Source: Nitrospira sp. (GTDB lineage Bacteria > Nitrospirota > Nitrospiria > SBBL01 > JAADHI01). From it: DNA of 64,000 nucleotides. Location: positions 5,795 through 69,794 of the forward strand of contig JALUVJ010000093.1 of the NCBI GenBank assembly GCA_027020665.1, in the 5' to 3' direction. Each line of letters begins with the position of its first letter. Positions within the stretch are counted from its first letter, which is position 1. Positions 3,541 through 25,281 of the stretch are shown here, one piece after another. The position numbers were made by a program, and so were the translations under genes. The notes under the pieces are model-generated. The model was not told the origin of the DNA. It saw only the letters and a list, made by a program, of their open reading frames with translations, and ran no database searches.

Positions 3541-3634
3541 AGCATCAAGCCTATCACAAAGCCCCTAGGCGTCAAGACAGATTCAAGCGCACTAAGGGGA
3601 ATAACCAACTGAAATATATACGTTTATTTTAATA

Positions 3635-5098: not shown

Positions 5099-5112
5099 CA
5101 GTCGCTTCCTCC

Positions 5113-6955: not shown

Positions 6956-8317
6956 TTAAAATTTTCTGCTAATCAACCTTCTTTCAAAACTCACATTTCC
7001 GGCCTGATCTACCGATTCGACCAAAATCAGGTTGACCCCTTTTTTAAGAGGCAATTCATGTGCAAAACCTTCCGCATCGCGTTGTGCGGGGGCATTCCCG
7101 TTGATATAAATTTTGGCCGCCGCATCCGAGACGCCGCGCACAACAATCACCGCCTCATTCATGATTCCGTCTTTTTTAGGAAAGAGGACCTCCAATTTCG
7201 GCGGTTTTAAAAGCTGCACCACTTCAATCTTCCGCACAGCACTCCACGCACCCTGCACGCCCTTGCCGTCCACGGCGGCCACGCGCCAAAAATAAACCCC
7301 TTTTTTCAAATTGCCGTAAAGGAATCGGGTTTTGGACAGGCGTTCATTGAGGATAAGACCGACAAAACGCGGTTTTTTTGCAATTTGCAATTGATAGTGC
7401 TGGCTTTTTTTATTCTCTTGCCAGGCGAATAAAATTTCAGGCGGAAAATTCCGATAATAATAAATTTTTTTCGCAGCCGGGCTTTTCAAAGCCGGCGGCT
7501 CTAAAATCCGTAGCGGCGCGGACGGGGCAGCCACCTTTTCAATTTTTGTGGCTTCATTGGCCTTTACTTCCACGGTCTTGCCATTCGCGCGGACTTTGGC
7601 CACCCCTTTAAAAACCGTGACCGTGCTGGATTTATCCGGCAGCACATTAATTTCAAATTCGGTTTTTTGATCCAGACTGTCCCGCGTGTCGATTTCGGTT
7701 AAACCCGAAGGCAGGGCGATTTGCAGATTGACGTTGCCCGAACCGCTGCCGTCGATCCGCCCGCGTAAACGGCCGTTTACAAGCACCCGAAAGGACCGTC
7801 GGCTTCTCAGAATCCGACTTCCGCCCAAACGCCGGATAATTACCAATGAATTTTCATCCATTTCCAAAACGTTTTCTGCGTCAAAGGCAATTGTCGCCCG
7901 CGCATTGTTCAGGGTCTGCACCGCGTCCCGCTCAAAGAGACTCAAACCCGCCGCCGCCCCTTCCCAAACGATGCCCTTGGCCCGCTTATACTTCACCTCG
8001 TTTTCCAGTCGGCTTAATTGCGCCACCGCTTCGGCCTTCCCGGAAAAATCCGCTGCATCGCCATCGTTTGCAAAATCCATTTGAAAACGGCCTTCGCTCT
8101 TTTCAAGCGAAACCGGAGTAAACCTGCCGCCGACTTCAAAAAAAGACAGGCCGGGTGCGCCCTCTGGAAACAATTGTTTTAAACCGGCCAGTAAAAAAAC
8201 CGCGCAGATCAAGAAAGCCGTGAGCGCCCAAACGGCCTCCGCACCCAGCGTGCCGACCCAAAACAGCACACGCCGAATCCCCCGGGCCTTTTTAGATTGA
8301 ATCTCCCCTGCGGTCAT
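6956..8317 (-). CDS. membrane-anchored FecR-like protein with C-terminal FN3-like and Ig-like modules
   Basis: It has a short cytoplasmic N-terminus and one TM (VLFWVGTLGAEAVWALTAFLICAVFLLAGL). A FecR-type beta-rich region follows (ATIAFDAENVLEMDENSLVII ... TVTVFKGVAKVRANGKTVEVKANEATKI), then GVYFWRVAAVDGKGVQGAWS (FN3-like) and a terminal Ig-like module. Its ATG shares one nucleotide with the giant ORF's TAA (TAATG at 8315-8319). Confidence 0.6.
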   Translation of the reverse strand: MTAGEIQSKKARGIRRVLFWVGTLGAEAVWALTAFLICAVFLLAGLKQLFPEGAPGLSFFEVGGRFTPVSLEKSEGRFQMDFANDGDAADFSGKAEAVAQLSRLENEVKYKRAKGIVWEGAAAGLSLFERDAVQTLNNARATIAFDAENVLEMDENSLVIIRRLGGSRILRSRRSFRVLVNGRLRGRIDGSGSGNVNLQIALPSGLTEIDTRDSLDQKTEFEINVLPDKSSTVTVFKGVAKVRANGKTVEVKANEATKIEKVAAPSAPLRILEPPALKSPAAKKIYYYRNFPPEILFAWQENKKSQHYQLQIAKKPRFVGLILNERLSKTRFLYGNLKKGVYFWRVAAVDGKGVQGAWSAVRKIEVVQLLKPPKLEVLFPKKDGIMNEAVIVVRGVSDAAAKIYINGNAPAQRDAEGFAHELPLKKGVNLILVESVDQAGNVSFERRLISRKF

Positions 8318-11300
8318 TAATATTTCCCCTGGACGCGGATGAACCAGCCGCGCGCATCATAATTGTTGTCGGAAAATTCATTGTCCGTGAAGCGGCTGAA
8401 ATTGTAGCCCACACCGAAACGAAAATGTTTCGCCAGGGCACGATTCACTTCGACAGCGTAACCTTCGAGCTGGTCGTTTGCCTGAAACTGTTTCAGGATG
8501 CGGTATTCTCCCGCGATATCCCACCGTTTCGTCACATGAAAATTAAGACGATTAATCCAAAGATCGGTCCGGCTTTTCAAATCCGGACGCGGGCTTTGGC
8601 GTTCTTTCTTGAGTTTAACCGCGTATTTTTCGACCCATTGAAAATACCGCGAGATGTCGTAGATAATTTCCACGGACGTCACATGGGATGCGGTTTTCAG
8701 CATCGGGCCGCTTGCATCGGGTTTTTGATCCATCAGAAAGGTATATTTTGAAATAAAATTCACCCGGTCAAAGGCAATGGGCCGATAGGCCACCCCGCCC
8801 CCGGCTTCTGTAAAACGCGCCTCGAGGCGATTTTGTGTGCGATTTTTTGTATCGCTGAAATTAAATTTCCCAAACAAGGTCAGTCCCGAAAGTATTTTCA
8901 GCTCGCCCTGATGGGTCGTGAGACGGTGTATTTTTTTGTCCGTGCCTTTTTCAAGCCGCAGTTCAACACGGTGCGCGGAACGGCTGCCGTCCGGACGCAG
9001 GTAGCGCAGACTCAAGGCGGCGGCATCCCGCGTGGTGTTCCGGGTCAGTCCTTTGAGGTAACTGCGTTCGTAGTTCAGATTGATTTTCCATTTTTTATCA
9101 TCGCCGAAACGCTGATCCAAGCCCCAAAGGGAGCGGGTTTGATTTATAGGCCCGCGCTCTTCACCGTATTCGCCGTAAAGTTTCAGACGCGGCGTCAACA
9201 TGCGGTCGCCCCCGGCGACGGAAGCCCAGGTCGCCTCTTCACCCTCTTTTTTCTTAAAGGTCTCATTAATATAAAGTGTGGAGCGATCGTCAATGCGTGC
9301 GCTCAAGCCCAGCAGGGCCGTATCGGCGGCATTTGAAAAGGATCCCTCGGCGACCCCGTCGAGCCAATCCGCAAGCCCGGCCTTCAACCCCAAGGTGCTG
9401 CGATAACGATCCGCACCGCGAATCAATTGCTGATGTTTGAGCAAGGCCGAAAAACGCTCATGGACCTGCCAATTCACCGCACCGGCAAGTTGTTGCTCCA
9501 CTTTGGAAACACCGCCGCCTTCATCAATGCGTTTATCCTGAAAACCCGCCGTAAATAAAAACGGCCCCCGGCGATGCCCGTATTCAAGTTCTTTCATAAG
9601 CACCTGCTTCGCACCGACCTGATTCGCCGAAACCGCGTTCGCATTGGCAATCACTTCCTGAAAATCGTAACGCAAGCGCAGGGTATCCTGCTTGTTCAAG
9701 ACGGCTTTCAGACCGCCCCCGTATTTTAAAGTGCCCTGTTCCAACAAGGTGCCGTTTGAGAAGAAACCGGGCGAAAGGCGTTTGTAATAGGCATTCCCCA
9801 GCAGACGCGCTTTTGCGCCAAACCATTCGGAGAGATTGCTGCGTACCGCCGCCTTGTAGGCCGATCCCGAGTCCGCTACGGTCGCGGCAAGGGGTGTGAA
9901 GCTGATGCCCCCGTCTTCACTGATCAAAGTCGCGCTGTTTTTCCCCCGGCTTTGCGCATATTCCCCGACCAGCGTCGTATCCCGGCCCAAACGGAGTTCC
10001 GCGTCCGCCGCCTTCAGTGCGTAATCACCGGCCTCCGCCGCGTCTTCGATGGCCGTACCCCCAATCGCAAGATGATCCCCCACCTGTTGGCGCACCCGGC
10101 CGCCCACCGCCCTTTTATCAAAATTCTGCGCCTCGTATTCAAAATCGACCAGGACAAATACGGGATGTCCCTGCAAAGAAGCTTGCGCCAAAAGCAGGTC
10201 ATTCGAGACGACGCCGGATATCGGACGCCGGAATAAAATGCGACCCTCTTCATATTTAAAACTGTAATCGGCATCCCGAACCTGGTCAATTTTGGCCAGG
10301 ACCAGACCGGTATTCTGATCCCGCACTTCAATGCGCACCTGCTCGCTGCCTTCAATGACATTTTTTTCGGAAAGGTAGTAGAGTGAGCCGCCCGTCGCCC
10401 GGAAGGTGTTTTGCACATGGGCCTGACGCACCTCTGCACCAAAAACGATCACTTTGGTATCGTGTGCGCCGTACCGCGTTTTTGAAAGGGATCGGTATTC
10501 GGCACGTGCGCCGTATAAAGTGCGGTTAAAGGCCGCAAGCTCCGTATCGTTCAAATCGGTTTTATAATTGCCGACAAGCACATTCAAGTCCTCGCCTTCG
10601 ATGGCAAGATAAAACTTGCCCCGGCTTTGTGCGTCGTATACAATCGTGCTCTCATCGCCGTAAACCGGGTAGAATTTATCCGGATCGATATTCGTAAAAA
10701 AGCGGTCGGTTTCCGCCTGATTCAGATTTTGAAACATCCGCTCAAATTCATTTTTTCCCGTGTCAAAGGCGGAGGTGATGAGATACTTGCCCAGAATTTT
10801 CCCCTTTAAATAATAAGCCAGTCGTCCCTTTGCATAATAATCCTTCCGCTGATCGGCACCGGCCCCTTCCAAATAACCCGAAGTCGAAATTCGACCGAAC
10901 TCCCCGTCGGCCAGCGCCATCAAAAAGAAAGGGGCCTCATTCACTGTCACTTCGCGTTCAATGCGACTGCTGTAACCTTCGGCATCCACGACTTTGATGA
11001 CCAAGGTATTTTTGCCGGATTGAAGCTCGGCCCTTGTGCTAAAGGTCCCGTTTTCCGCCACCGCAATTTTTGTTTCATTCACCCAAACGGCATTGCCCGG
11101 ATCGGTCATCCCACGCAGCGGCAATTGCGTATGCGATAAAACCTTGCCTTTTGGCGGCAAGAGCACCGAAATTTGCGGGATGGGTTTGATCGCCATCATG
11201 ACCCGCCCTTGTTCGTCTTTATCGGAAAGATGTATTTTGAGCGTCATCATGCGACTCACCCGTTGAGGATTTGCCGCCACAATCGTGAACAGGTTTTCCC

Positions 11301-14300
11301 CGATTTTCAGCAGGATATCCGTTTCAAAGCGACCCTCCATACCGACTTTCACGGCTTTGCCATCCACCCAGACCTGATTTTCCGCCTCCGTTTTGCCCTG
11401 AAGACGATAAGACGCCACCGGAAGCCCGGCTGTTTTTTCACCGCCTTTGGGCAGAGGCAACGCCAGGTAACGCGCATTGGGTTCTCCAAAAACCAAGATT
11501 TCTTGCCCCGCAGGGGCAAGAATTTCAACCTTCGGGAAAATGAGTGTTGTTTTCAGCACTTCGCCGCCGGAACCAGCCATTTCCAGTATCAGTGTTTCCA
11601 CGTCTTGCCTCAGCTTGGTGGAAAAACGATCTCCCGTCTCCGTTTCCACCGGGAGACCGTTAATCCTCATCACCGCTTCGGAACGCGGATGATTGAAGAT
11701 TTTTGCCGTTTTTACTTCCTTGATCGTGCCGACAATCTCAACCCGCCGATTGACGGCACGCCCTTCTTCAACACCGTTGCTGGCAATGGGCTTCCCTTCG
11801 CCAAACCATTTGAGCGAGAAGCGTTTTTTGTCGATGGCCTTCTTTTCAACCAGGTAATGCATCGCGGTTTCCGCGCGGGCCTTTGAAAGCTGAAGATTAA
11901 AATCATCATTGCCTGTATTGTCCGTATGGCCTTCGATCGTAATGGGTTCGTTCGGATATTTTTTCAGGGTTTCCGCTAATTCATCCAGCACTTTTTCCGT
12001 CTTCTCATTAATTTCAGCCGAACCGACAGCAAAGGCCGAACCCAGCAAATTAAGCGATACCGCCGAAGTTTTATTCACCCCAAAGAGCCGACGCGTGCTG
12101 GCCGCAGCAGAGCCGTCCTTGTAATCGACTTTAAATTGGTACGAATAGACCGCACCCCCTTCCATGAGCTTTTGCGCGGCGTCTTTGCCGTCCCAGCGAA
12201 TCTCTTCCGGCGGAGCGCCTTGGCCTTGCAAGAGGCGGAATATCCCGCCCTCCGCATCTTTGATTTCCAAGCGCCAGGATTTCACGCGGTCCGGCATCTC
12301 CGGCACAATCGAAAACAAAATGGGTTGGATAAGATTTTCACCAATAATTTCAACAACTTCTTTAATTTCACTCACACCCAGATGGGCCTGATTTACAGGC
12401 AACTTCACATCGTCGCCGTTGACCAGCACTTGCATGGCCTGCAAATGACCCGTAATTTGCGTCGGCTCGATTTCAAGCTGCGGAGAAACGGCAAGGCCTT
12501 CTTTGCCCGGGCGCCCGATATGTTCCGTTTCAATATCGTAAACCACACCAAAATTAACCTTGGTTAAAAGGCCGCGACTCACTTCCGCAATACGTGCTTC
12601 TTCCGTCGTCACGGTGGTGCCCGGCGGCAGAGTGGCGGTATGGATCTTCAAAAGCCGCTGTCCGGGTTTCACGCCGGGGAAATGATAGCGCCCGGCATCA
12701 TCGGTCACGACGTAGGTTCCGTTATCCAAGGCCACCCGGACACCGGCAATGCCCGCTTCACCGCGATCCTGATAACCGTTTTGGTTCTTATCGAAAAAGA
12801 CCTTCCCAATGACGGTGCTCAAGTCAAAAATCGGATCGTAATCGACACGAACCTTGACACGGGACTGATTTGAAATCGCCGCAAAATCCACGGCCTGTGC
12901 CAAATTGACATGCGCTCCGGGTTTGACCCCCGATCCGATCACCAATTGATAGGACAGCGTTATATTCCCCGCATCCCCCGTATCGGCCAAACCGTTTCCA
13001 TTTTGATCCACCCAAGCAGCAATAGTGCCCAAATTAAAGGCACGGGTTTGATTGCCCGAAGGATCAGCCGCAGGCTGACCGTTGACCAGGCTTGAACCCT
13101 GTAGATACTTAAATCCGGGTGGAATTTTGTCATTCAAGGTCACAGAGGACACATCCTGTGTCGTGGTATTCTGAATCGCCACTTCATAGGTAATCACATC
13201 GCCGATTACGGCTGATTTTTTATTTGCGGTTTTGCTGATTTTCAGCACTTCTCCGGCGGTAAAGGTTACCGTCTGTGCAGACTGAAGCAGTACCCCGTTC
13301 ACGGTCGCGTTTACCGCCGCGATGCCGGAGATAGCGGAACTCAATTGCGCACTGTAGGTCCCGTCTCCATTATCGACAACCGCCGTCATACTGCCAAAAG
13401 GATCTCCGGCGGCTTCTTTCACCCCGGCCGGTTTTCCGGAGGGTGCGGCCGCTTCGACAACAGAAATAACGACATTCAAACCCGAACCCAAATCGAGACC
13501 GGCGGGATCTTTCGGCGTAATCGTAATCGTGCTGTAAGGATTGCCGTCCCCGTCGCGGTCAATTTCAATCAAGCTCGGCGCGGCAGAAACAAGGGACTGC
13601 GCCGTATCAATGCTTTGCACGGTAACGGACAGACTGTTCGCATCCTCCGAATCCCCGTCGGCATTCCCTTCTGCCGCCGACTGCGGCGCCACCGCTGCGG
13701 TCGCCGTATCGTTAAATTTGGCCAGAAAGCTTGCACTGTCTGAGACGCCTGGGGTATCGGCCGTAAAACGGATTTGAACATTGCTCGATGAAGTCAGGAG
13801 CTTGCTGCCCAGTGTTACCGTCATGACTTGAGCCGAAACACCGGCACAATATTCCCCGGCGCCCGGCGTCGGACACGTGATACTGGCGGTTTGATTCGCC
13901 CCTGCGACCGAAACGCCGGTCACATTCAAATTGGCATAGGCACTCGGGGCAGTCAACTCAAGTTGATCAATGCCGGTATCCGCGGCATTAATCGCGGGCA
14001 GTATATCCAAAATAAAGGCACGGGTTGTCGTACTCATGACCACCGTATTCGGACTGATTTCCGAGAGCGCCGAAGTCGCCGCCAAGTCCCCCGTCGCCAC
14101 CGCAATGCTGTCGGCATCGGCGGCATCCCCGTCCGCATTGCCCGCCGTGATCGCTTGCGCCGCCGTAATCGTCGCCGCATCGTCCACCGTCGCGGTCACA
14201 TTCCCGCTGCCCACGGTTGACGGCGCATCGGCGGTGAAGGTGATGCGGATATTCGTGAGCGAGGTCGTGACGGCAGTCCCCAAGGTGAGCGTGATGACTT

Positions 14301-17300: not shown

Positions 17301-20300
17301 TGAGATTCAATGTGCCGCTGATGGTATTTGTTGTGCCTCCGGTGAAGCGCAACTGCGTATTCGGCGTCACCGCCGTGAAGTTGCCGGTGCTGAGGGCGTC
17401 CGAAAAAGTCACAACATTCGAGGCATTCGTGATCGTCAAATTATTAAATGTACTGCCGCCGCTGGTGATGCTTTGCGTGCCCGTGCCGTCGAAGGTCACG
17501 GTGTTGGCGCCGGACGTCAAGGTGCCCGCGTTCGTCCAATCGCCCGCGACGTCGATGTCAAAGCCTGCCGCATTCAATGTGGCGTTGGCGTCGATGTTCA
17601 GATTTCCGCTCAAACCGTTCACACCGCTCAAAGCAGCGCCGAGCGAATACGTTGTCGCCGCCGTCGGCGTCAGTCTCAAACTGCTGTAGGGCAGGGTGGC
17701 GATGTTCACGCCCGCGCCCGTGCCCGTGTATTGCACCGTCGAAGTGCCCGCCGTAAAAGTCCCGCTGTTTGAAAGAGGCGTGCCCGTGCCGTCGATCTCC
17801 AGCGTGTAGCCCGAAGCCCCCAAGTCGAGTGTGCCGGCCGTCACGGTCAGGGTTTGCACTTTCGTCGATGCGCCCAAAGTCAGGCTCGTGCCGTTCACCA
17901 CCACGTCTTCCAAATCCTGCGGGCCGCCGCCGGAGCTGTCGCTCAGGGTCGTCGTGCCGTCGAAAGTCCAGTCGGCCGTTCGACTGGTCACGTCGATGGA
18001 ACCGTTGCTTGCAATCGTGACATTGCCCGCCGTGTTGACCGTCGGATTGTTGGTGCCGATGTCGAGATCGCCGTCCGTGATCGTGAGATTGCCGTTGATG
18101 TCGAGGGCGTCGGCGATGATGACATCGTCGCTGCCGCTGCCGCCGGTATTGTTGAGCGTAAGGTGGTTGAAGGCGGCACCGCCGCTGGTGATTGTTTGGT
18201 CGGCCGTGCCGTTGAAGGTCACCGTGCCCGTGCTCGTAAACACACCGCCCGTGGCGTCCCAATTCCCCGACACGTTGACCGCAAAGGCGGCGGGGTTGAA
18301 GGTGCCGTTGATGTCCATATCCACGGCGGTCACGTTGCCGCCCGGTGTGAAGCTGTGCCCCGTCAAGACATGCAGTTCGTGGTTGCCCGAAACCGTGAGG
18401 TTGCCGCCCGAAACCGTGTATTGAATGTCGGTATCCCCGTTCGTTGCGGTGGAAAGATTCGCATTCGTGAGTGCGCCGCTGTTGTCCTGGCGCGTCACGA
18501 CATGGTTTTGATAAATGTTGAAGTTGGAAAAACTGCCGCCGTTGGAGACCGTCACCGTCGTCCCGTCTTCCGTTTCGTTGTCGATAAAGGCCAAAACCGT
18601 GTCGCCCACCGAAGGGGTCGCCGCGATGGAATACACGCCGGCGCCGTTCGTTACGGCCGTGCCGACGCTCGCGCCGTTGACCAGAAGTCGAATCACCTTC
18701 CCCGAAAGCGGCGTCGCTTCATCATCGTCGGTGTAGACCGTGCCGGTCACGCCGGTGAACCATTGGATGTTGTTGCCGGAATCCACGGAACTTGCGGGAT
18801 TCACGGGCAGTTGCGCGGCATTGGAGCCTGCGGCATCCGAATCCTGCACGTCCACAAAGTCGATGGCCTTCGTGGCGGACGCGCCCAAAACCAAGTCCCA
18901 CTGCGTGCCGGGGCTGTCGGAGACGAGGTTGATGCGGTCGTCGGCATCCAGGCCGTCCAAGGTGAGGGTGCCGTTGATCGTCTGCGTCGCCGTGTTGTCG
19001 AAGGTGAGGGTGACATCCGTCGCATCGTTCGTGCTTTCGGTTTTTGTGAAGTTGTTGAAGGTCGTGGAACCCGTCAGCGTTTGATTCGTGCCGTCGAAGA
19101 CGACGGTGCCGGAACGCGGTGTAAACGTCCCGCCGTTGCTCCAATTGCCCGCGACGTTGACCGGGTAGTTCGTGCCGGAGACGTCCAAAGTCCCCGCCGT
19201 GATCGTGAGGTTGCCGTTGACGTCGAGGGCGGCATCGAGCGTCCACGTGCCGGATCCGTTGAAGGTGAGCTTGGAATAGGTGTCGCCCGCGGCCAAGCCG
19301 GTGTAAGTGCCGCCGCCATCGTACAGCACGGTGCTGCCCGTGTTGAGGGTGGTGGTTGTGGTCGTCACCGTTTCGCCGCCTTCCAATTGCAAAGTTTCGG
19401 TCGCCCCGACGGTCAAGACATCCGGCACGGTGAGGTTGAAGCCGTTCAAATCCAGGGTGCCGCCGGACAGGGTGAGATCTTGCCCCGCCGCATCCAACCC
19501 GGTCGTAAAGTTCGCTGTTAAAACCGCCGTGCCCGACGCTTTGTTGATGGTGAAGGTGCCGTCCGGCAAGTCGCCGGTCACGTTGATATTCTGTGTGCCC
19601 GTGCCGTCGAGGGTGATCGCCGCCGTGCCGAAAATTTCAACATCGGCGGAGGTGAGATTGCCGGCCACGGTGAAGGTGCCGGTGTTGACATTCGAAGCCG
19701 AAGTAAAAGTGAGGTTGCCGTTGATGTCCATCGTGCCGGTGACGGTAATCGAAAACCCACCTTTGTCGAACTCAACATCGTTGAAAGCCATTGTGCCCGA
19801 ATTAACACTGGTGCTTTGCGTGCCCGCATCGTTGTTAAAGCTGACCGTGCTGCTTCCGGCGGAAACATTGCCCAAGGTCCGCGTCCAGTTGCGGCTGACA
19901 TGGATCGTGTCTTGAAGCGTGAGTGTGCCGCCGCCTTTGTTGATGTCCACGCTCGGCAAGCCCCCCGTGCCGCCCGCGGCACCCAAAATCTGTGCCCCGG
20001 CGCCATTGAACAACACCGTAGCGTCACCCCCGACGGCGCTGTCCGTCGTTGTGAGGTTCCCGGCCACGGCGACCGTGCCGGTGTTGAGATTGCCCAACCC
20101 CGAAATCGTGAGGTTGCCGTCGATGTCCATCGTACCCGTCACGGTCAAGCTAGAGCTGCCTTTGTCAAAAATGACGTTGTTAAAGGCCATGCCCGGCGCC
20201 GAAATGTTGCCGGAAATCGCTGAGGCATCGTTGTTGAAACTGACGGTGCTCGTCCCCGCCGACACCGTTCCTGCGGTATGCGTCCAGTCCTTGTGCACGC

Positions 20301-23300
20301 TGATCGTATCTTGCAGCGTGAGGGTGCCGCCGCCTTTGTTGATGACGATCGACGGTACGCCCACCGTGCCGCCGCCTCCACCCGCGTCCAGGGTTTGCGC
20401 CCCGCCGCCGTCGAGGGTGATATTCCCGTTGCCGCCGACGGTGCCGTCGGTCCCCGTGACATTCCCTGCCACGGTGAGCGTGCCATCGATCGACCCCACG
20501 CTGTTGATCGTGAGGTTGCCGTTCACATCCATCGTGCCGCTGATGTTGAAATTAAATCCGGCTTTCGTAAGCTGGACATGGTTAAATTGCTCAGAGCCGG
20601 TGCTGATATTCGAAGTGATCCCCGTCCCGTCAAAGTGCACCGTCCCGCTGTTGTGGACGAAACTGCCGCCGGAGATCGTGATGTCATCCACAATCGTCAT
20701 CGTGCCGGAGGTACTCGTAAAGCCGCCGCCGCCGACAATCAAATCACCGTTGATGTCGATAGCGACAGCGCCGCCGTTGAAGGTCCCGAGGCTTTCCATG
20801 TTGGTGGTCGTGACGTTGCCGCCCGGCGTGAAGCTGTGGCCGGAGGGAATGTAGAGTTCATCGCTCCCCGTCACACTCAGGTTCCCGCCGGAGACGGTGT
20901 AGCGGATATCGGTATCTCCATTCGTCGCCGTGCCCATGTCGGCGTTCGTGAGCGCACCCCCGTTGTCGTGGCGGACGACCACATGGTTTTGATAAATATT
21001 CAGGCCGGAGATCGCGCCGCCGTTGGAAACACTGACCGTCGTACCGAAGTTGCCGCCGTTGCTGTCCAGGTAGACCAAGAGCGTTTGACCCGTGTTGGGC
21101 GCGGCGTTGATCGTGTAGTTGCCGGAGCCGTCGGTCACCGCCGTACCCACGCTGCTGCCGTTGACCAAGAGACGCACGGTTTCGCCCACCATGGCGGTCG
21201 CTTCGTCATCGTTCGTGTACACGGTTCCGGAGATGGCGACGGTGAATCCCCAGTTCAGATTGTTCCCGCCGTCCGTGCTGCTGCTGTGCACAATCGTCAA
21301 GCCGCCGGAGGCGTCGCTGTCCGTGGGGCGCACGTTGTCGATGGCGAAGGTGCCGTTGGCCGTGAGGCCCCATTGGTTGCCGGGGCTGTCGGAAACAAGC
21401 AAAATGCGGTCGTCGGCATCGAGTCCATCCAAAGTCAACAAGCCGTTGATCGTCTGCGTCGCCGTGTTGTCGAAGGTGAGGGTGACGTCCGTCGCATCGT
21501 TCGTGCTTTCGGTTTTTGAAAAGTTGTTGAAGGTCGTGGAACCCGTCAGCGTTTGATTCGTGCCGTCGAAGACGACGGTGCCCGAACGCGGTGTAAACGT
21601 CCCGCCGTTGCTCCAATTGCCCGCGACGTTGACTGGGTAGTTCGTGCCGGAGACGTCCAAAGTCCCCGCCGTGATCGTGAGGTTGCCGTTGACGTCGAGG
21701 GCGGCATCGAGCGTCCACGTGCCGGAGCCGTTGAAGGTGAGCTTGGAATAGGCGTCGCCCGCGGCCAGGCCGGTGTAAGTGCCGCCGCCATCGTACAGCA
21801 CGGTGCTGCCCGTGTTGAGGGTGGTGGTTGTGGTTGTGACGGTTTCGCCGCCTTCCAATTGCAAAGTTTCGGTCGCCCCGACGGTCAAGACATCCGGCAC
21901 GGTGAGGTTGAAGCCGTTCAAATCCAGGGTGCCGCCGGACAGGGTGAGGTCTTGCCCCGCCGCATCCAACCCGGTCGTAAAGTTCGCTGTTAAAACCGCC
22001 GTGCCCGATGCTTTGTTGATGGTGAAGGTGCCGTCCGGCAGGTCGCCGGTCACGTTGATGTTTTGCGTGCCCGTGCCGTCGAGGGTGATCGCCGCCGTGC
22101 CGAAAATTTCAACATCGGCGGAGGTGAGATTGCCGGCCACGGTGAAGGTGCCGGTGTTGACCGCCTGGGCCGAGATGAAGGTGAGATTCCCGTCGATATT
22201 CATCGTACCGGTGACGGTGATGTCGAAAGCCCCTTTATCAAACTCCACATGATTAAAGGCCATCGCGCCCGAATTGATGCTGCTGGCCTGAGTTTCATTC
22301 TGTTGAAAACTCACCGTGCTGCTGCCAGCGTTCACCGTGCCCGCGGTGTAGGTCCAGTCGCGCTCGATCACGATGGTGTCCTGAAGGGTCACGGTGTCGC
22401 TTTTATTGATCGTCAGCGAGGGCAGACCCGCCGTACCGCCTCCCCCGCCCGCACCCACGACCTGCGCACCGCTGCCGTCCAGCACGATGACGCTGGTGCC
22501 GCCGACCACTGCATCCGTGCTGGTCACATTCCCCGCCACGTTGATGTTGCCGCCGAGGATTCTGTCCACACTGTTGATGACGAGGTTGCCGTTGACATCC
22601 AAGGCCCCCGTAATCGTCACCGGCGTCGCCCCTTTTGAGAAGGTGAGGTGATTCAACACGGTCGCACCAATATCCATCACCGGGGAGCCGATGCCCAGTC
22701 CGTCAATGTGGATTGTACCGTTGTTGTGTATAAAGCTACCGCCGGAAATGGTGAAGTCATCCACCACGCTCATCGTACCGCTTGTGGCAGTAAAGGTCCC
22801 GCCGCCGAGGATAAAATAATCGCTGATGTCGATCGTGATTGCGCCACCGTTGAAAGTGCCGCGGCTTTCCAGACTCGGTGTCGTGACATTGCCGCCCGGC
22901 GTGTAGCTGTGGCCGGCGGGCAGAAAGAGTTCGTGGCTGCCGGTCACGGTGAGGTTGTTGCTGCCGTCCACGGAATACTGAATATCCGCGTCCCCGTTGG
23001 TCGCGGTGCTCAGGTTGGCGTTTGAAAGCACGCCGCCGTTGTCGTGGCGGACGACGACATGGTTTTGATAAATATTTAAGGCCGAAAGTGTGCCGCCGTT
23101 TGAAACGGTGACCGTTGTGCCGTCTTCCGTTTCGTTGTCGAGATAGACGAGCAGGGTGTTCCCGGTATTCGGCGCGGCGTTGATCGTATAATTCCCGGAG
23201 CCGTCCGTCGTGGCGGTCAGGCCGCTGTCCGTGCCGTTCACAAGCAAGCGGACGAGTTTGCCGGTCAAGGGGGTCAACTCATCGTCGTCCGTGTAGACTG

Positions 23301-24906
23301 TGCCGGAAATCGTGGTGGGTGCAAAAATCCAGCGGGGGCTGGCCTCCGCATCGTCGTTTCCGCCGTTGTTTACGGCGTCGTTGGCCGTAATGTCTCCATC
23401 CGTCGCATCGGCGTCCTGCACATTCACAAATTGCACATCTTTCGTCACGGCGGCGGGCACACTGAGATTCCATCGTGTCGGACTACTGGAAGATCTCAGG
23501 CTCAGCAATTGCCCCGAGGCCCCTTTCAAGGTCAGCGAACCGCCGGTCGCGATCGTCTGCGTGCCGCTTGCGGGAAAGGTAAGCGTATCGGTGCTCGTCA
23601 CGGTTTTGTTGAGGTTGTAAAAGGTCGTCGATCCGCTGAGGGTCTGGCCCGTGCCGTCCAGATTTACCGTGGAGGTGCCTGCGTTGATCGTGGCGCCCCC
23701 GCTCGTCCAATCGCTCGACAGATTCACGGTCGCAGAACCCATGTTGACCGTGCCGCCCGTGAGATTGATGTTGTCATCCGCATCCAGGGTGTTCACGAGG
23801 TTGAGCGTGCCGGCGGATACCAACAGCCCGTCGCCGGTATTGGCGCCAATTTTATTTGCTCGGAAACTGCCGGACATGCCCAGGGTCAGTGTCGCGCTGG
23901 AATTGATGACCCGGATGCCGCCCCCGCCGTTCGGAATCGAACCCGTTCCATCGGCGCGTGTGCCGATGTAGTTGCCTTCGGCGGTGACGCTGCTTGAAAA
24001 TTGTGAGTCGAGGCCGACGGTCGCGTTTCCGGAGATCACATTGCCTTCGCCGACGGCCGAGCCGCCTAAGATGTTGTTGGTTGCATTAAAAAACGTAATG
24101 CCCTGATTGCCGTTGCCTAAGGCCGCGGTCCCGGCCGCGTTGGTGCCGATATAGTTCCCGATGATGGTCGCGGCGGTATCGATCAGCGGTCCGCCGCCCC
24201 ATACCCCGATATGAATACCCAAGTCCGTATTGCCCGAAACGACATTGCCCAGGCCCGCGCTGCTGCCGCCAACGGTGGCGCCGCTCGCGTGAATCCAGAT
24301 GCCGACCACGCTATTGCCCAAACCGCCCGTGCTGTTTTGGTCGGTCCCGACGTAGTTTCCCGTAATCGTCACGCCGCCGCCCGTGTAGTCGATGCCGGTC
24401 CCGTTCGATACAAGCACGTTGCCCTCGCCGGAAGGCCCGCTACCCGTGGTATTGTTGCCGCCGATTGTGATGCCGGTGCCGCTCGTGATCTCGATGGCGT
24501 CGTCCGTGAAATTCTGAATGCGAAGCCCCTTGACGACATTGTTGTTCGACGTGATGCTGATGCCGTCGGTCACCGTGCCGCCGCCGTCCAAAATGACCCC
24601 GGCGTTGGAGGCGTCGATCGTAACCGATCCCGCACTCATCGCGGGCAGGGCGCCGGATACGGTGATGGTCGCCGGGGAAGCTGTAGGAAAGGTCGTGGTA
24701 TTGAAAACGATGGTGTCGGTCGCGGCGGCTGCGGTCATGGCCTCGCGTAAGGAACAATCCGCATCGCAGGTGCCGTCGTTGGTATCTGCTGTTTTTGTGA
24801 CGGTCAGCGTCGCGGCCATTGCTTTTGAAGCAAACAAGGAAACCGTCAGCAATATGAAAATTAAAAAAAGCGGTGCTTTGATAATTTTGAAAACCTTTTT
24901 CAACAT
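8317..24906 (-). CDS. giant (5,529 aa) secreted repetitive surface/outer-membrane protein: CSLREA/beta-helix N-terminus, four beta-helix super-repeats, 3x157-aa repeats, Ig-like, DUF11-like, SdrD-B-like, OmpA-like, C-terminal barrel-like region
   Basis: A single ORF of 16,590 nt with no stop. It has a Sec signal peptide and Gly/Thr/Asn/Val-rich beta-helix-type repeats. Recognisable motif blocks are listed as sub-features. The sequence ends ...RGWFIRVQGKY with a terminal aromatic residue, typical of OMP barrels. Confidence 0.9.
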   Translation of the reverse strand: MLKKVFKIIKAPLFLIFILLTVSLFASKAMAATLTVTKTADTNDGTCDADCSLREAMTAAAATDTIVFNTTTFPTASPATITVSGALPAMSAGSVTIDASNAGVILDGGGTVTDGISITSNNNVVKGLRIQNFTDDAIEITSGTGITIGGNNTTGSGPSGEGNVLVSNGTGIDYTGGGVTITGNYVGTDQNSTGGLGNSVVGIWIHASGATVGGSSAGLGNVVSGNTDLGIHIGVWGGGPLIDTAATIIGNYIGTNAAGTAALGNGNQGITFFNATNNILGGSAVGEGNVISGNATVGLDSQFSSSVTAEGNYIGTRADGTGSIPNGGGGIRVINSSATLTLGMSGSFRANKIGANTGDGLLVSAGTLNLVNTLDADDNINLTGGTVNMGSATVNLSSDWTSGGATINAGTSTVNLDGTGQTLSGSTTFYNLNKTVTSTDTLTFPASGTQTIATGGSLTLKGASGQLLSLRSSSSPTRWNLSVPAAVTKDVQFVNVQDADATDGDITANDAVNNGGNDDAEASPRWIFAPTTISGTVYTDDDELTPLTGKLVRLLVNGTDSGLTATTDGSGNYTINAAPNTGNTLLVYLDNETEDGTTVTVSNGGTLSALNIYQNHVVVRHDNGGVLSNANLSTATNGDADIQYSVDGSNNLTVTGSHELFLPAGHSYTPGGNVTTPSLESRGTFNGGAITIDISDYFILGGGTFTATSGTMSVVDDFTISGGSFIHNNGTIHIDGLGIGSPVMDIGATVLNHLTFSKGATPVTITGALDVNGNLVINSVDRILGGNINVAGNVTSTDAVVGGTSVIVLDGSGAQVVGAGGGGGTAGLPSLTINKSDTVTLQDTIVIERDWTYTAGTVNAGSSTVSFQQNETQASSINSGAMAFNHVEFDKGAFDITVTGTMNIDGNLTFISAQAVNTGTFTVAGNLTSADVEIFGTAAITLDGTGTQNINVTGDLPDGTFTINKASGTAVLTANFTTGLDAAGQDLTLSGGTLDLNGFNLTVPDVLTVGATETLQLEGGETVTTTTTTLNTGSTVLYDGGGTYTGLAAGDAYSKLTFNGSGTWTLDAALDVNGNLTITAGTLDVSGTNYPVNVAGNWSNGGTFTPRSGTVVFDGTNQTLTGSTTFNNFSKTESTNDATDVTLTFDNTATQTINGLLTLDGLDADDRILLVSDSPGNQWGLTANGTFAIDNVRPTDSDASGGLTIVHSSSTDGGNNLNWGFTVAISGTVYTNDDEATAMVGETVRLLVNGSSVGTAVTDGSGNYTINAAPNTGQTLLVYLDSNGGNFGTTVSVSNGGAISGLNIYQNHVVVRHDNGGALTNADMGTATNGDTDIRYTVSGGNLSVTGSDELYIPSGHSFTPGGNVTTTNMESLGTFNGGAVAIDINGDLIVGGGGFTSTSGTMTIVDDITISGGSFVHNSGTVHFDGTGITSNISTGSEQFNHVQLTKAGFNFNISGTMDVNGNLTINSVGSIDGTLTVAGNVTGTDGTVGGNGNITLDGGGAQTLDAGGGGGTVGVPSIVINKGGGTLTLQDTISVHKDWTHTAGTVSAGTSTVSFNNDASAISGNISAPGMAFNNVIFDKGSSSLTVTGTMDIDGNLTISGLGNLNTGTVAVAGNLTTTDSAVGGDATVLFNGAGAQILGAAGGTGGLPSVDINKGGGTLTLQDTIHVSRNWTRTLGNVSAGSSTVSFNNDAGTQSTSVNSGTMAFNDVEFDKGGFSITVTGTMDINGNLTFTSASNVNTGTFTVAGNLTSADVEIFGTAAITLDGTGTQNINVTGDLPDGTFTINKASGTAVLTANFTTGLDAAGQDLTLSGGTLDLNGFNLTVPDVLTVGATETLQLEGGETVTTTTTTLNTGSTVLYDGGGTYTGLAAGDTYSKLTFNGSGTWTLDAALDVNGNLTITAGTLDVSGTNYPVNVAGNWSNGGTFTPRSGTVVFDGTNQTLTGSTTFNNFTKTESTNDATDVTLTFDNTATQTINGTLTLDGLDADDRINLVSDSPGTQWDLVLGASATKAIDFVDVQDSDAAGSNAAQLPVNPASSVDSGNNIQWFTGVTGTVYTDDDEATPLSGKVIRLLVNGASVGTAVTNGAGVYSIAATPSVGDTVLAFIDNETEDGTTVTVSNGGSFSNFNIYQNHVVTRQDNSGALTNANLSTATNGDTDIQYTVSGGNLTVSGNHELHVLTGHSFTPGGNVTAVDMDINGTFNPAAFAVNVSGNWDATGGVFTSTGTVTFNGTADQTITSGGAAFNHLTLNNTGGSGSDDVIIADALDINGNLTITDGDLDIGTNNPTVNTAGNVTIASNGSIDVTSRTADWTFDGTTTLSDSSGGGPQDLEDVVVNGTSLTLGASTKVQTLTVTAGTLDLGASGYTLEIDGTGTPLSNSGTFTAGTSTVQYTGTGAGVNIATLPYSSLRLTPTAATTYSLGAALSGVNGLSGNLNIDANATLNAAGFDIDVAGDWTNAGTLTSGANTVTFDGTGTQSITSGGSTFNNLTITNASNVVTFSDALSTGNFTAVTPNTQLRFTGGTTNTISGTLNLNGQAAGTEVVLRSTNASQYVLDVTGGAQTVSFVDVQYSDAGTNNITANLSTNSGNNDDAAASPHWIFSVQITGTVYTDEGTTPIADGAIVRLLVNGVSVGTDTTTTGAYAIPSGALSAGDAILVYIDNHASDGVAVTVSDGTALAGFDIYAGHVIARHDNSRSLSNANMDTALGAFSDTDLLYSVASGNLTVSGAGTELYIPLNHSFTPGGNVTTPAMENLGTFVGGSGTIDVNGALQLTAGAFTATSGTLSIGTGFTISGGTFTHNAGTVAFDTGSATINIGSAILNDLSLAIGTGTLTVTGTVDVDGDFAVTSLAGIDGGTIAVAGNATSTDTDIVGTATILLDGGGNQTLGVLSSTGDFPNIAINKTGGTLTLEGTIETADWTYTAGTVNAGTSTVRFDAFYPHTISSGAMRFNDVELSNNGNAVTIVGTMDINGNLTLSDAGNISGGTMTVAGNLTSADAAVDGTTAVTLDGTGTQNINVTGDLPDGTFTINKTSGTVILLANFATGLDGAGQDLTISQGTLDLNGFNLTVPDVFTVNAAGTLQLEGGETVTTGTTTLNSGSTVLYDGGGTYAGLAAGNSYANLTFNNAGGTWAQNAALDVNGNLTITAGTLNSAGNAITLAGNWSNSGTYASGANTVTFDGGNQSLAGSTTFNHFSKIDSANDATDLTLTFDNTATQTINGTFTINGLDADDRINLVSDSPGNPWSLVLGAGAVKSVDFVDVQDSDAAGSDAALIPVNPTNAIDSGNNIQWFGTAVAATSAAVEISPNAVAVGSTGNAFTYDLLPTIGGSDTGIDQIILSVPAGYGNLVLNGVSVGGTAQIPDCVGLGAGEYCASISGQVITVTLGTKVTTTLSNIRLTLTADAPTTVGGADFTSTFDDTSTGVAAQAAAAGNADGDAGDNNSITVQVVGRAVTSVLAEVSPNAVPINSTGNSFAYDMLPTINAGDTGINQIALTVPAGHSNLSVTGVSVGGTAQTAGSGCPTPAAGEYCSTVSGQVITLTLGTAVTTSLTNIRITFTADAPSTVGSGNVTATVDDAATITAAQAITAGNADGDAADADSIAVATGDLAATSALSEISPNTVVMSTTTRAFILDILPAINAADTGIDQLELTAPSAYANLNVTGVSVAGANQTASITCPTPGAGEYCAGVSAQVMTVTLGSKLLTSSSNVQIRFTADTPGVSDSASFLAKFNDTATAAVAPQSAAEGNADGDSEDANSLSVTVQSIDTAQSLVSAAPSLIEIDRDGDGNPYSTITITPKDPAGLDLGSGLNVVISVVEAAAPSGKPAGVKEAAGDPFGSMTAVVDNGDGTYSAQLSSAISGIAAVNATVNGVLLQSAQTVTFTAGEVLKISKTANKKSAVIGDVITYEVAIQNTTTQDVSSVTLNDKIPPGFKYLQGSSLVNGQPAADPSGNQTRAFNLGTIAAWVDQNGNGLADTGDAGNITLSYQLVIGSGVKPGAHVNLAQAVDFAAISNQSRVKVRVDYDPIFDLSTVIGKVFFDKNQNGYQDRGEAGIAGVRVALDNGTYVVTDDAGRYHFPGVKPGQRLLKIHTATLPPGTTVTTEEARIAEVSRGLLTKVNFGVVYDIETEHIGRPGKEGLAVSPQLEIEPTQITGHLQAMQVLVNGDDVKLPVNQAHLGVSEIKEVVEIIGENLIQPILFSIVPEMPDRVKSWRLEIKDAEGGIFRLLQGQGAPPEEIRWDGKDAAQKLMEGGAVYSYQFKVDYKDGSAAASTRRLFGVNKTSAVSLNLLGSAFAVGSAEINEKTEKVLDELAETLKKYPNEPITIEGHTDNTGNDDFNLQLSKARAETAMHYLVEKKAIDKKRFSLKWFGEGKPIASNGVEEGRAVNRRVEIVGTIKEVKTAKIFNHPRSEAVMRINGLPVETETGDRFSTKLRQDVETLILEMAGSGGEVLKTTLIFPKVEILAPAGQEILVFGEPNARYLALPLPKGGEKTAGLPVASYRLQGKTEAENQVWVDGKAVKVGMEGRFETDILLKIGENLFTIVAANPQRVSRMMTLKIHLSDKDEQGRVMMAIKPIPQISVLLPPKGKVLSHTQLPLRGMTDPGNAVWVNETKIAVAENGTFSTRAELQSGKNTLVIKVVDAEGYSSRIEREVTVNEAPFFLMALADGEFGRISTSGYLEGAGADQRKDYYAKGRLAYYLKGKILGKYLITSAFDTGKNEFERMFQNLNQAETDRFFTNIDPDKFYPVYGDESTIVYDAQSRGKFYLAIEGEDLNVLVGNYKTDLNDTELAAFNRTLYGARAEYRSLSKTRYGAHDTKVIVFGAEVRQAHVQNTFRATGGSLYYLSEKNVIEGSEQVRIEVRDQNTGLVLAKIDQVRDADYSFKYEEGRILFRRPISGVVSNDLLLAQASLQGHPVFVLVDFEYEAQNFDKRAVGGRVRQQVGDHLAIGGTAIEDAAEAGDYALKAADAELRLGRDTTLVGEYAQSRGKNSATLISEDGGISFTPLAATVADSGSAYKAAVRSNLSEWFGAKARLLGNAYYKRLSPGFFSNGTLLEQGTLKYGGGLKAVLNKQDTLRLRYDFQEVIANANAVSANQVGAKQVLMKELEYGHRRGPFLFTAGFQDKRIDEGGGVSKVEQQLAGAVNWQVHERFSALLKHQQLIRGADRYRSTLGLKAGLADWLDGVAEGSFSNAADTALLGLSARIDDRSTLYINETFKKKEGEEATWASVAGGDRMLTPRLKLYGEYGEERGPINQTRSLWGLDQRFGDDKKWKINLNYERSYLKGLTRNTTRDAAALSLRYLRPDGSRSAHRVELRLEKGTDKKIHRLTTHQGELKILSGLTLFGKFNFSDTKNRTQNRLEARFTEAGGGVAYRPIAFDRVNFISKYTFLMDQKPDASGPMLKTASHVTSVEIIYDISRYFQWVEKYAVKLKKERQSPRPDLKSRTDLWINRLNFHVTKRWDIAGEYRILKQFQANDQLEGYAVEVNRALAKHFRFGVGYNFSRFTDNEFSDNNYDARGWFIRVQGKY
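8320..10940 (-). other. C-terminal ~870-aa region with outer-membrane beta-barrel character
   Basis: Starting at APFFLMALADGEFGR there are long runs of alternating hydrophobic/polar short strands rich in Y/G/R/D/N. There are no repeats or Cys. It ends with FIRVQGKY. This is an inference from composition only. Confidence 0.5.
11728..12040 (-). other. OmpA-like peptidoglycan-binding domain embedded in the giant protein
   Basis: LDELAETLKKYPNEPITIEGHTDNTGNDDFNLQLSKARAETAMHYLVEKKAIDKKRFSLKWFGEGKPIASN....GRAVNRRVEIV is a canonical OmpA_C motif set (TD..G....N..LS..RA, NRRVE). Confidence 0.85.
12637..12815 (-). other. SdrD B-like / Cna-B-type domain
   Basis: GKVFFDKNQNGYQDRGEAGIAGVRVALDNGTYVVTDDAGRYHFPGVKPG is the classic G.V..D.N.NG..D.GE.G..GV.V.L......T.TD..G.Y.F signature. 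Confidence 0.7.
12878..13246 (-). other. DUF11-like (conserved repeat) domain
   Basis: LKISKTANKKSAVIGDVITYEVAIQNTTTQDVSSVTLNDKIPPGFKYL...ITLSYQLVIG matches the DUF11 pattern as I remember it. Confidence 0.6.
13615..15027 (-). repeat. three tandem coding repeats of about 157 aa with a conserved Cys pair
   Basis: Units start near nt 15027, 14555 and 14085 (..E[IV]SPN.V.......F..D.LP.I...DTGI[DN]Q..L..P....NL...GVSV.G). Each contains C....AGEYC...S.QV.TVTLG. Confidence 0.85.
18970..19689. repeat. 720-bp near-identical intragenic repeat, copy A
   Basis: It aligns without gaps to 21442-22161 at an offset of exactly 2472 nt. I counted 17 mismatches by eye (about 97.6% identity). The flanks diverge sharply. 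Confidence 0.9.
21442..22161. repeat. 720-bp near-identical intragenic repeat, copy B
   Basis: Partner of 18970-19689. A third, much more diverged copy lies at about 15240-15960. Confidence 0.9.
23317..24813 (-). other. N-terminal CSLREA motif plus parallel beta-helix (PbH1-like) region
   Basis: DGTCDADCSLREAMTAAAA carries CSLREA at nt 24739-24756, the signature that names the TIGRFAMs CSLREA N-terminal domain (from memory). It is followed by repeated GNxIGxxxxGxGNxxxGI turns typical of right-handed beta-helices. Confidence 0.6.
24814..24906 (-). other. Sec signal peptide of the giant protein
   Basis: MLKKVFKIIKAPLFLIFILLTVSLFASKAMA|ATLTV has a basic n-region, a hydrophobic core and an AxA cleavage motif. 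Confidence 0.8.
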
Positions 24907-25242: not shown

Positions 25243-25281
25243 TTGACGCAAGTGTGACAAAACTTGTCACACTTGCGTCAA
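25243..25281 (-). terminator. 17-bp perfect stem-loop downstream of msrB (probable terminator; also sits in the upstream region of the giant gene)
   Basis: TTGACGCAAGTGTGACA (25243-25259), a 5-nt loop, then TGTCACACTTGCGTCAA (25265-25281). On the minus strand a TTTTT run follows about 10 nt after the stem. Confidence 0.55.

Follow-up and report, generated by a model that had tools for sequence, protein, structure and literature searches.

In Gram-negative fibrillar adhesins, OmpA-like domains are described as forming the anchor at the C-terminus (PMC10952558, PMC12617251), and the DUF11 domain, now renamed CLIPPER, is an isopeptide-bonded extracellular stalk domain (PMC12617251). Adhesins of this type, e.g., B9T28_05395 of Acinetobacter silvestris, contain a signal peptide, repeats, a CLIPPER-type stalk, and an OmpA-like domain, and the papers that describe them give no account of outer-membrane crossing (PMC12617251, PMC10952558). 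Such adhesins pose the question of how a Sec-exported fibre with a peptidoglycan-binding C-terminus gets its body over the outer membrane. This study concerns a gene for a 5,529-aa protein in a stretch of 64,000 nucleotides from Nitrospira sp. (assembly GCA_027020665.1, contig JALUVJ010000093.1, positions 5,795 to 69,794 of the forward strand; hereafter, the window). The protein likewise has a signal peptide, repeats, a CLIPPER-type stalk, and an OmpA-like domain, but its chain continues into a predicted outer-membrane barrel. A barrel partner that is covalently attached points to the missing component of the OmpA-anchored adhesins.

Several better-known systems resemble this architecture in part, namely, I) the classical autotransporters; II) the ushers; III) type IX secretion (T9SS) with its SprA pore; and IV) the SlpA/OmpM proteins. 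Classical autotransporters (type Va; NalP, EspP) have the same order of signal peptide, N-terminal passenger, and C-terminal barrel, but their barrel has 12 strands, against ~40 predicted here, and they possess an alpha-helical linker where none is modelled here. The ushers FimD and PapC hold a fibre of folded Ig-like domains in the lumen of a large barrel, as the window protein would, and share with it an inserted small beta domain as a possible plug and flanking periplasmic Ig-like domains. However, ushers have 24 strands, the fibre here is one polypeptide and not a polymer of subunits, and the inserted beta domain is placed by strand parity on an extracellular loop, whereas the usher plug sits in a periplasmic turn. 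SprA, with 36 strands, is likewise a very large single-chain barrel sized for folded proteins, which do pass through its pore, and T9SS adhesins (SprB with the PorP/SprF barrel) likewise combine a giant adhesin gene with a dedicated barrel gene. T9SS belongs to the Bacteroidota, whereas the barrel described here occurs across Proteobacteria, Nitrospirota, Acidobacteriota, Omnitrophota, and others, and is fused to its putative substrate. Finally, SlpA and OmpM also place a peptidoglycan-binding domain and a periplasmic spacer ahead of a large C-terminal barrel (30 or 16 strands), although these are S-layer homology (SLH) domains and a coiled coil instead of an OmpA-like domain and an Ig spacer, and the huge N-terminal adhesin is extra here.

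Single-chain barrels of about 40 strands have been predicted before. A 'superfamily of large OMBBs' (outer-membrane beta-barrels) with 38 and 40 strands is described in passages of Solan et al. 2021 (PMC8346858; cited in bioRxiv 10.1101/2022.10.09.511469), and three predicted 38-strand barrels in D. radiodurans in a passage of PMC9388160. The likeness to the barrel reported here is one of strand count (40), and the passages of PMC8346858 and PMC9388160 that treat the 38- and 40-strand barrels mention neither adhesins nor OmpA. In the literature searched, no description of the present architecture, no solved topology, and no connection between giant barrels and OmpA-anchored adhesins were found, although an earlier description elsewhere is possible.

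Results

Domain order of the giant protein

The minus strand of the window carries, at 8317..24906, a single uninterrupted open reading frame (ORF) of 5,529 codons, and the window, which also encodes SMC, Lon, MetH, and a TolC-like OEP protein, is diderm chromosomal DNA. An initial annotation had read this ORF as a Sec signal peptide, a long series of modules of extracellular type, a canonical OmpA-like domain, two Ig-like modules, and a barrel-like end of ~870 aa. Scans of the protein against Pfam and NCBIfam, PDB sequence searches with selected regions, and AlphaFold2 (AF2) models bore out this order with minor corrections (Table 1). The DUF11, SdrD_B, and Ig-like modules proposed ahead of the OmpA-like domain were found, and two beta domains in that region (aa 4114-4176 and 4184-4287) had been missed; behind the OmpA-like domain, AF2 gives three Ig-like domains (aa 4412-4472, 4496-4561, and 4571-4655) rather than two. 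The N-terminus, MLKKVFKIIKAPLFLIFILLTVSLFASKAMA followed by ATL, has, as judged by eye in the translation, the Lys-rich n-region, hydrophobic core, and AxA site of the signal peptide.

A closed barrel of about 40 strands is predicted at the C-terminus

The last 870 aa (4660-5529) gave no Pfam, NCBIfam, or PDB sequence match. An AF2 model built on a homologue alignment (model 1, aa 4400-5529; predicted local distance difference test, pLDDT, 86.3; predicted template modelling score, pTM, 0.71) folds them into a long antiparallel meander of 43 DSSP strands that reaches the last residue. Many strands alternate hydrophobic and polar faces (dyad pattern), and the C-terminus, ...GWFIRVQGKY, ends in an aromatic residue that is conserved across the family. 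The best matches of the model in a Foldseek search against PDB were all very large outer-membrane barrels, namely, D. radiodurans SlpA/SDBC (the SlpA/OmpM entries 8agd, 7zgx, and 8ae1 ranked best), SprA, LptD, FimD/PapC, TonB-dependent transporters, and MtrB, with template modelling (TM) scores of ~0.2 and identities <10%. As modelled, the fold class is clear, with no close relative among solved structures.

Closure of the barrel was assessed by mean-field direct coupling analysis (DCA) on the strand columns of 286 homologous barrel domains (Neff 264), using gap-poor sequences, zero-sum gauge, and exclusion of the gap state. Coupling between neighbouring strands averaged 2.03, vs. 1.04 +/- 0.25 between non-neighbours, and the strongest non-neighbour pairs were 7-10 (z 7.0), 1-43 (z 6.9), and 13-15 (z 5.7). 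The 1-43 coupling indicates that the first strand pairs with the last and closes the barrel, and the 7-10 and 13-15 couplings place DSSP strands 8, 9, and 14 in loops, which leaves 40 wall strands. With this number, the long loops (10, 49, 13, 104, 25, 14, and 15 residues) share one side, and the turns on the opposite side are mostly of 2-5 residues, with two of 10-11, i.e., the pattern expected of an outer-membrane protein. Model and coevolution together predict that the C-terminal 870 aa are a closed outer-membrane barrel of ~40 strands, presumably inserted into the membrane. The barrel-like character first noted is thereby strengthened. AF2, the giant barrels retrieved with Foldseek, and the coevolution of strand 1 with the last strand all contradict the alternative raised with it, namely, that this region forms no barrel.

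Strand parity in the model puts the 49-residue loop between wall strands 3 and 4 on the extracellular side. This loop bears the most conserved motif of the family, TN[LI]DPDK[FY]YPVYGDxST (near-invariant columns D342, P343, Y347, P348, Y350, G351, D352, and S354), and is poorly modelled (pLDDT 55-63, model residues 330-360); a conserved loop of low confidence suggests a conformation that depends on a partner or a metal. The 104-residue insertion between wall strands 7 and 8 is modelled with a small beta-sandwich inside it and bears the conserved motif EVRDKxTGLVL...DYxIxYxxGRIxFxRP. The coupling of strands 7 and 10 puts the intervening DSSP strands within this insertion, outside the wall, and makes it a candidate cap or plug.

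The OmpA-like domain is intact and fits a periplasmic position

The OmpA-like domain, first annotated at nt 11728-12040 (aa 4289-4393), is indeed canonical. Pfam OmpA (PF00691) matches aa 4292-4387 with E 1.4e-21 and 77.1 bits (cut-off 27.2), many NCBIfam OmpA, Pal, and MotB families match the same segment, and AF2 gives a beta-alpha-beta-alpha fold. The segment aligns over its full length with the solved domains 5wtp, 5u1h, and 3td3, with the motifs HTDNTG...LSKARA...NRRVEI kept. The peptidoglycan-contacting Asp and Arg that are retained in this alignment are presumably the residues that bind diaminopimelate in A. baumannii OmpA, and their roles in this contact were reportedly described by Park et al. 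in 2012. Of the three Ig-like domains that follow, the last two are Glucodextran_B domains (two Pfam matches, the best at aa 4577-4656), and the third is joined to barrel strand 1 by a linker of 4 residues.

The C-terminus of outer-membrane barrels is periplasmic as a rule. Given a periplasmic C-terminus and a strand 1 that runs antiparallel to the last strand, strand 1 would start in the periplasm, and the Ig-like and OmpA domains attached to it would thus be periplasmic as well.

A conserved base module separates the barrel end from an acidic repeat region

A second AF2 model, also built on a homologue alignment (model 2, aa 3760-4660; pLDDT 83.2), resolves a base module of four domains directly upstream of the OmpA-like domain, with blocks mostly at pLDDT ~85-95. 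This base (aa 3888-4287) is conserved among the closest homologues, and the region upstream of it is variable. Throughout aa 3888-4660, the model is all-beta save for the OmpA helices and has no helical or disordered linker; any membrane crossing within it must therefore use folded domains, which would suit a very wide barrel. The conserved four-domain base (~aa 3886-4288) would then be the candidate segment that crosses the outer membrane.

The content of lysine plus arginine (K+R) leaps at ~aa 3886-3888, from 1.4-3.3% before this point to 8-16% in the domains from CLIPPER on (8-12% at the base start, aa 3888). The guanine-cytosine (GC) content of the gene is ~0.60 at 13250-24900 vs. ~0.52 at 8320-13250, because the amino-acid composition shifts at aa 3886 from Gly/Thr/Ala/Asp-rich, Lys/Arg-poor repeats to an ordinary one; this GC step is a composition effect and no mark of foreign DNA.

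The variable region (aa 32-3885) holds four super-repeats of 550-830 aa with 33-64% mutual identity (k-mer and pairwise analysis), each of which opens with a GTVYTDDDE beta-sandwich, as well as three modules of ~155 aa. Every segment of it has a K+R content of 1.4-3.3% and an isoelectric point (pI) of 4.1. Over the N-terminal ~3,700 aa, where the initial annotation had proposed beta-helix modules (aa 32-3750), Pfam and PDB sequence searches gave no above-threshold match, with a sub-threshold CarboxypepD_reg-like match only, and in NCBIfam the CSLREA motif was the sole match. Features of fibrillar adhesins as defined by Monzon/Bateman are present in the giant protein, namely, a signal peptide, the stalk domains Invasin_D3, DUF11/CLIPPER, and SdrD_B, and an OmpA anchor; an adhesive tip domain was not identified in it. 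Composition and domain type suggest that the acidic variable part is extracellular.

The barrel family occurs in fused and split forms

With the barrel as query, a word-indexed search returned >300 proteins, and an exhaustive search returned 3,108 cluster representatives at E <= 1e-3 (1,126 at E <= 1e-30). Among the full-length matches listed, the barrel stands at the extreme C-terminus and total length ranges from ~1,000 to 7,612 aa; many representatives of 3,000-7,600 aa have a C-terminal barrel, and the minimal members of ~1,000 aa have a single Ig domain ahead of it. A genome scan found the barrel in at least 582 species, which belong to Nitrospirota, Acidobacteriota, Omnitrophota, Myxococcota, Planctomycetota, Bdellovibrionota, and Campylobacterota, and to Alpha-, Beta-, and Gammaproteobacteria. 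The best genomic matches were metagenome-assembled genomes of Nitrospirota, with 56% identity to a contig of Candidatus Manganitrophaceae.

ORF analysis of 67 loci from other species revealed a fused form, in which the barrel closes a giant ORF of 3,100 to >4,460 aa (16 loci), and a split form, in which an ORF of 1,000-3,000 aa abuts a downstream barrel protein of 1,200-1,600 aa (26 loci). At many split loci the adhesin stop codon and the ATG that starts the barrel gene overlap (ATGA). Base-by-base reading covered four split junctions, all from isolates (P. kuykendallii, Pseudomonas sp. 286, M. methanolivorans, and R. pingtungensis), and in these pairs adhesin and barrel protein each have their own signal peptide. 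The upstream proteins, where checked, contain DUF7933, DUF11/CLIPPER, SdrD_B, SpaA-like, and CarboxypepD_reg domains, and the split-system adhesins have exactly the layout of the OmpA-anchored fibrillar adhesins. Cultured carriers of the split form are Pseudomonas kuykendallii, Methylobacillus methanolivorans, Rivihabitans pingtungensis, and Leucothrix arctica; the split form is also present in Kangiella genomes.

Of the 16 fused proteins, 11 hold the OmpA-like domain internally (1-3 copies). In most split barrel proteins it is found at aa ~90-250, and in the barrel-protein ORFs of loci L066, L075, L083, and L053 two or three copies in tandem precede the barrel. It can also stand at the extreme C-terminus of the split adhesin (Kangiella, L028, L045, L061, and L074), and in many further split adhesins the C-terminal end is a degenerate OmpA-like segment. 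To judge from these arrangements, the domain usually lies at the junction of fibre and barrel, on either chain, and the window protein appears to unite in one chain three components that occur together elsewhere. A large family of the same architecture thus exists, in which no member of solved topology was found. Neither a soluble fold for the C-terminal region nor a loss of the OmpA residues, which had both been named as grounds for rejecting the first reading of the protein, was observed.

Other secretion and anchoring systems considered

The view that the protein is neither a classical nor an inverse autotransporter holds, as no match to Autotransporter, IAT_beta, POTRA/ShlB, or Usher families was obtained. 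A classical autotransporter (T5aSS) was rejected on the lack of a PF03797 match, the ~40 predicted wall strands, and the absence of a helical linker, and an inverse autotransporter (T5eSS) on the barrel at the extreme C-terminus and the lack of IAT_beta (PF11924); the Invasin_D3 match is an Ig-like stalk only. For two-partner secretion (T5bSS), scans of the window protein and of the split pairs L072 and L063 yielded no POTRA, ShlB, or TPS (haemagglutination activity) domain. As for chaperone-usher systems, no Usher (PF00577) match was obtained, there is no chaperone among the neighbours examined, and FimD/PapC are generic fold matches only. No SprA, PorP, or T9SS C-terminal-domain family matched. 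An SlpA/OmpM-type connector was rejected in view of no SLH match, no helical segment, and a weak fold match (TM ~0.2).

Neighbouring genes and other features

The protein encoded by the 453-aa gene directly downstream (Table 1) combines an N-terminal transmembrane helix with periplasmic beta domains and, at its C-terminus, a Glucodextran_B domain like those before the barrel. A homologue (27-34% identity) lies right after the barrel gene in 9 related loci of Nitrospirota, Acidobacteriota, and Terriglobia, and was not found at that position in more distant family members; one possibility is that the protein acts at the inner membrane as a partner or sensor of the fibre base. In the same 9 loci the histidine kinase is kept directly after the 453-aa gene (38-48% identity, tblastn), with response-regulator/GGDEF matches near it in most of them, which suggests a conserved adhesin-signalling (cyclic di-GMP) cassette.

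Upstream of the giant gene, the intergenic region of 450 nt contains at 25245-25279 a perfect inverted repeat with arms of 16 bp and a spacer of 3 nt (GACGCAAGTGTGACAA-GTT-TTGTCACACTTGCGTC), located ~75 nt downstream of msrB. No T-run adjoins it, and it might be a variant terminator or a site bound by a regulator. Elsewhere in the window, and unrelated to the giant gene, an ORF of 962 aa (50208-53093, plus strand) has a central spermine/spermidine-synthase-like domain (aa 519-647) as its sole domain, an architecture both large and unusual.

Table 1. Features of the giant gene and its downstream neighbours in the window (nucleotide positions unless marked aa)
Feature	Position	Strand	Extent, basis, or remark
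HAMP histidine kinase; response regulator with weak GGDEF; response regulator with GAF + GGDEF	2131..6939	-	Pfam
453-aa gene	6956..8317	-	Translationally coupled; TAATG overlap: start inside the stop codon of the giant gene
Predicted C-terminal outer-membrane beta-barrel	8320..10929	-	aa 4660-5529, ~40 wall strands; AF2, Foldseek, DCA
104-residue insertion, wall strands 7-8	10117..10428	-	aa 4827-4930; DSSP elements 443-502
49-residue loop, wall strands 3-4	10615..10761	-	aa 4716-4764
Three Ig-like beta domains	10942..11673	-	AF2 models 1 and 2, Pfam
OmpA-like peptidoglycan-binding domain	11710..12042	-	aa 4289-4399; Pfam, NCBIfam, structure alignment, AF2
Conserved base module	12046..13245	-	aa 3888-4287: CLIPPER/DUF11, SdrD_B, two more beta domains; Pfam and AF2
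DUF11	aa 3888-3964	-	Pfam; AF2 domain CLIPPER/DUF11, aa 3888-4024
SdrD_B	aa 4035-4103	-	Pfam; AF2 domain, aa 4030-4109
Beta domain A	aa 4114-4176	-	AF2
Beta domain B	aa 4184-4287	-	AF2; resembles FlgD_ig
Variable adhesin/fibre region	13252..24813	-	aa 32-3885; Pfam, NCBIfam, repeat and composition analysis
Invasin_D3-like Ig domain	aa 3767-3885	-	Pfam
CSLREA_Nterm motif	aa 35-60	-	NCBIfam
Sec-type signal peptide	24814..24906	-	aa 1-31, cleavage after AMA; read from the translation by eye

Discussion

The initial annotation saw a puzzle in a peptidoglycan anchor placed between a passenger and a C-terminal barrel. This puzzle is real but narrower than it seemed, as the position of the OmpA-like domain is in keeping with the usual topology of barrels and the same architecture recurs throughout a widespread family. 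In classical autotransporters, the pore-spanning linker meets strand 1 at the periplasmic side, so a periplasmic insert at this position is topologically legal. The order of passenger, OmpA-like domain, Ig-like domains, and barrel is thus legal provided that the chain passes the lumen a single time, upstream of the OmpA-like domain.

It is proposed that the protein is a self-anchored surface fibre threaded through its own 40-strand barrel, with the OmpA and Ig-like domains fixing its base to the peptidoglycan; this proposal has, in our judgement, an even chance of being correct. The chain would be exported by Sec, and the C-terminal 870 aa would fold as a closed outer-membrane barrel of ~40 strands, presumably inserted by the BAM (beta-barrel assembly) machinery. 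The three Ig-like domains and the OmpA-like domain would hang from the periplasmic start of strand 1 and tie both the barrel and the fibre base to the peptidoglycan, and the acidic, Lys/Arg-poor N-terminal ~3,850 aa would lie outside the cell. The chain would make a single crossing of the membrane, inside its own barrel's lumen, within the CLIPPER-SdrD_B-beta-beta base (~aa 3886-4288), as a string of folded domains and neither as a helix nor as an extended linker. The resulting topology would be identical to that of the classical autotransporter, in which a passenger-proximal segment runs via the pore to the periplasmic side of strand 1, with the difference of a large periplasmic insert (~370 aa of OmpA and Ig-like domains) at the turn between linker and strand 1. 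The hairpin or unfolded-chain mechanism of autotransporters is not implied, as the lumen here would fit folded domains; the mechanics would rather recall an usher that holds a pilus shaft, or the SprA pore of T9SS with a folded substrate inside.

Several points weigh against this proposal. We infer the presence of the chain in the lumen and, solely from composition and domain type, the surface exposure of the N-terminal region. Proteins with DUF11 repeats are not always external, since chlamydial OmcB is largely periplasmic. A pore of 40 strands must be sealed, and the conserved loops might fill the lumen so wholly that a passing chain would find no space. No OmpA domain is detectable in five of the 16 fused giants (L018, L029, L044, L069, and L084), so that the anchor would be modular and dispensable in some lineages. 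Lastly, expression or experimental data on any family member were not found.

OmcB also lends weight to a different explanation, in which the OmpA-Ig-barrel part is a tether or pore between outer membrane and peptidoglycan, like the SLH-bearing SlpA/OmpM, and the N-terminal repeats form a periplasmic, wall-associated scaffold with nothing threaded. A barrel protein of the split form, with its order of signal peptide, OmpA-like domain, and barrel, would by itself make a plausible tether; the minimal members have just one Ig domain before the barrel; and the best Foldseek match, D. radiodurans SlpA, has a peptidoglycan-binding domain N-terminal to a 30-strand barrel (PMC9388160). However, ~3,850 aa of Lys/Arg-depleted repeats with a pI of 4.1 far exceed the width of the periplasm; CLIPPER, SdrD_B, DUF7933, and SpaA-type domains form the stalk in adhesins of the cell surface (PMC12617251); and the consistent fusion or translational coupling of giant adhesins with the barrel is left unexplained, which makes a pure tether unlikely. 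Of the three alternatives initially offered for the window protein, an N-terminal part that stays periplasmic is accordingly disfavoured, and an undescribed mode of outer-membrane crossing has the best support.

If the chain does cross, the barrel could also be a dedicated translocon whose passenger is cleaved and released, or held non-covalently, with the OmpA and Ig-like domains only positioning the pore. Many passengers of classical autotransporters are cleaved, and the split systems imply that adhesin and barrel need not be covalently joined; yet Pfam and NCBIfam revealed neither a protease domain nor a recognisable motif for cleavage, and an OmpA-like domain at the extreme C-terminus of split adhesins argues for retention in the periplasm, so that release appears improbable to a similar degree. 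An artefact of assembly or annotation (merged genes or mis-joined repeats) has an obvious possible source in a near-identical internal duplication of 253 aa (aa 916-1168 vs. aa 1740-1992; window 18931-22161, minus strand; k-mer and pairwise analysis). Two short-read assemblies of the same locus (ENA ERZ27262676 k141_284114 and Logan SRR8439019) both end within the second copy of this repeat, and the length of the giant protein and its repeat number upstream of ~aa 1990 rest on the assembly of the window alone. From there, however, both independent assemblies keep the frame open for at least 3,560 codons to the gene end and continue into a gene identical to the 453-aa gene of the window. As this open frame covers the adhesin-OmpA-barrel junction, an artefact is rejected there, and doubt stays on the number of N-terminal repeats; in view also of the 16 fused homologues in other species and the many giant representatives with a C-terminal barrel, an artefactual fusion is hardly credible.

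With the self-anchored, threaded fibre as the preferred reading, the wider family may represent a distinct, unnamed pathway that displays and anchors giant fibrillar adhesins in diderms, consisting of a same-chain or coupled barrel, threaded folded stalks (often of isopeptide type), and one or more OmpA-like bolts to the peptidoglycan. This generalisation is put forward tentatively, as its prospects of being right are somewhat short of even. The display is regarded here as autotransporter- or usher-like, with a substantial chance that it merits the name of a separate system.

The fusion in the window and the ATGA-coupled pairs elsewhere point to a candidate conduit and anchor for Sec-exported fibres with a peptidoglycan-binding C-terminus, namely, a predicted barrel of ~40 strands that is larger than any solved single-chain barrel. 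If true, this would be a new route of outer-membrane translocation and anchoring, and it would explain how the many OmpA-anchored fibrillar adhesins of Gram-negative bacteria arrive at the surface. It would also give a function to a family of ~3,100 clusters and to the largest predicted single-chain barrels, and offer a new scaffold for surface display. The cultured carriers of the split form make this reading testable. The barrel proteins are a widespread family, so far unstudied, which probably reveals the way in which such fibres traverse the outer membrane and stay fixed to it.

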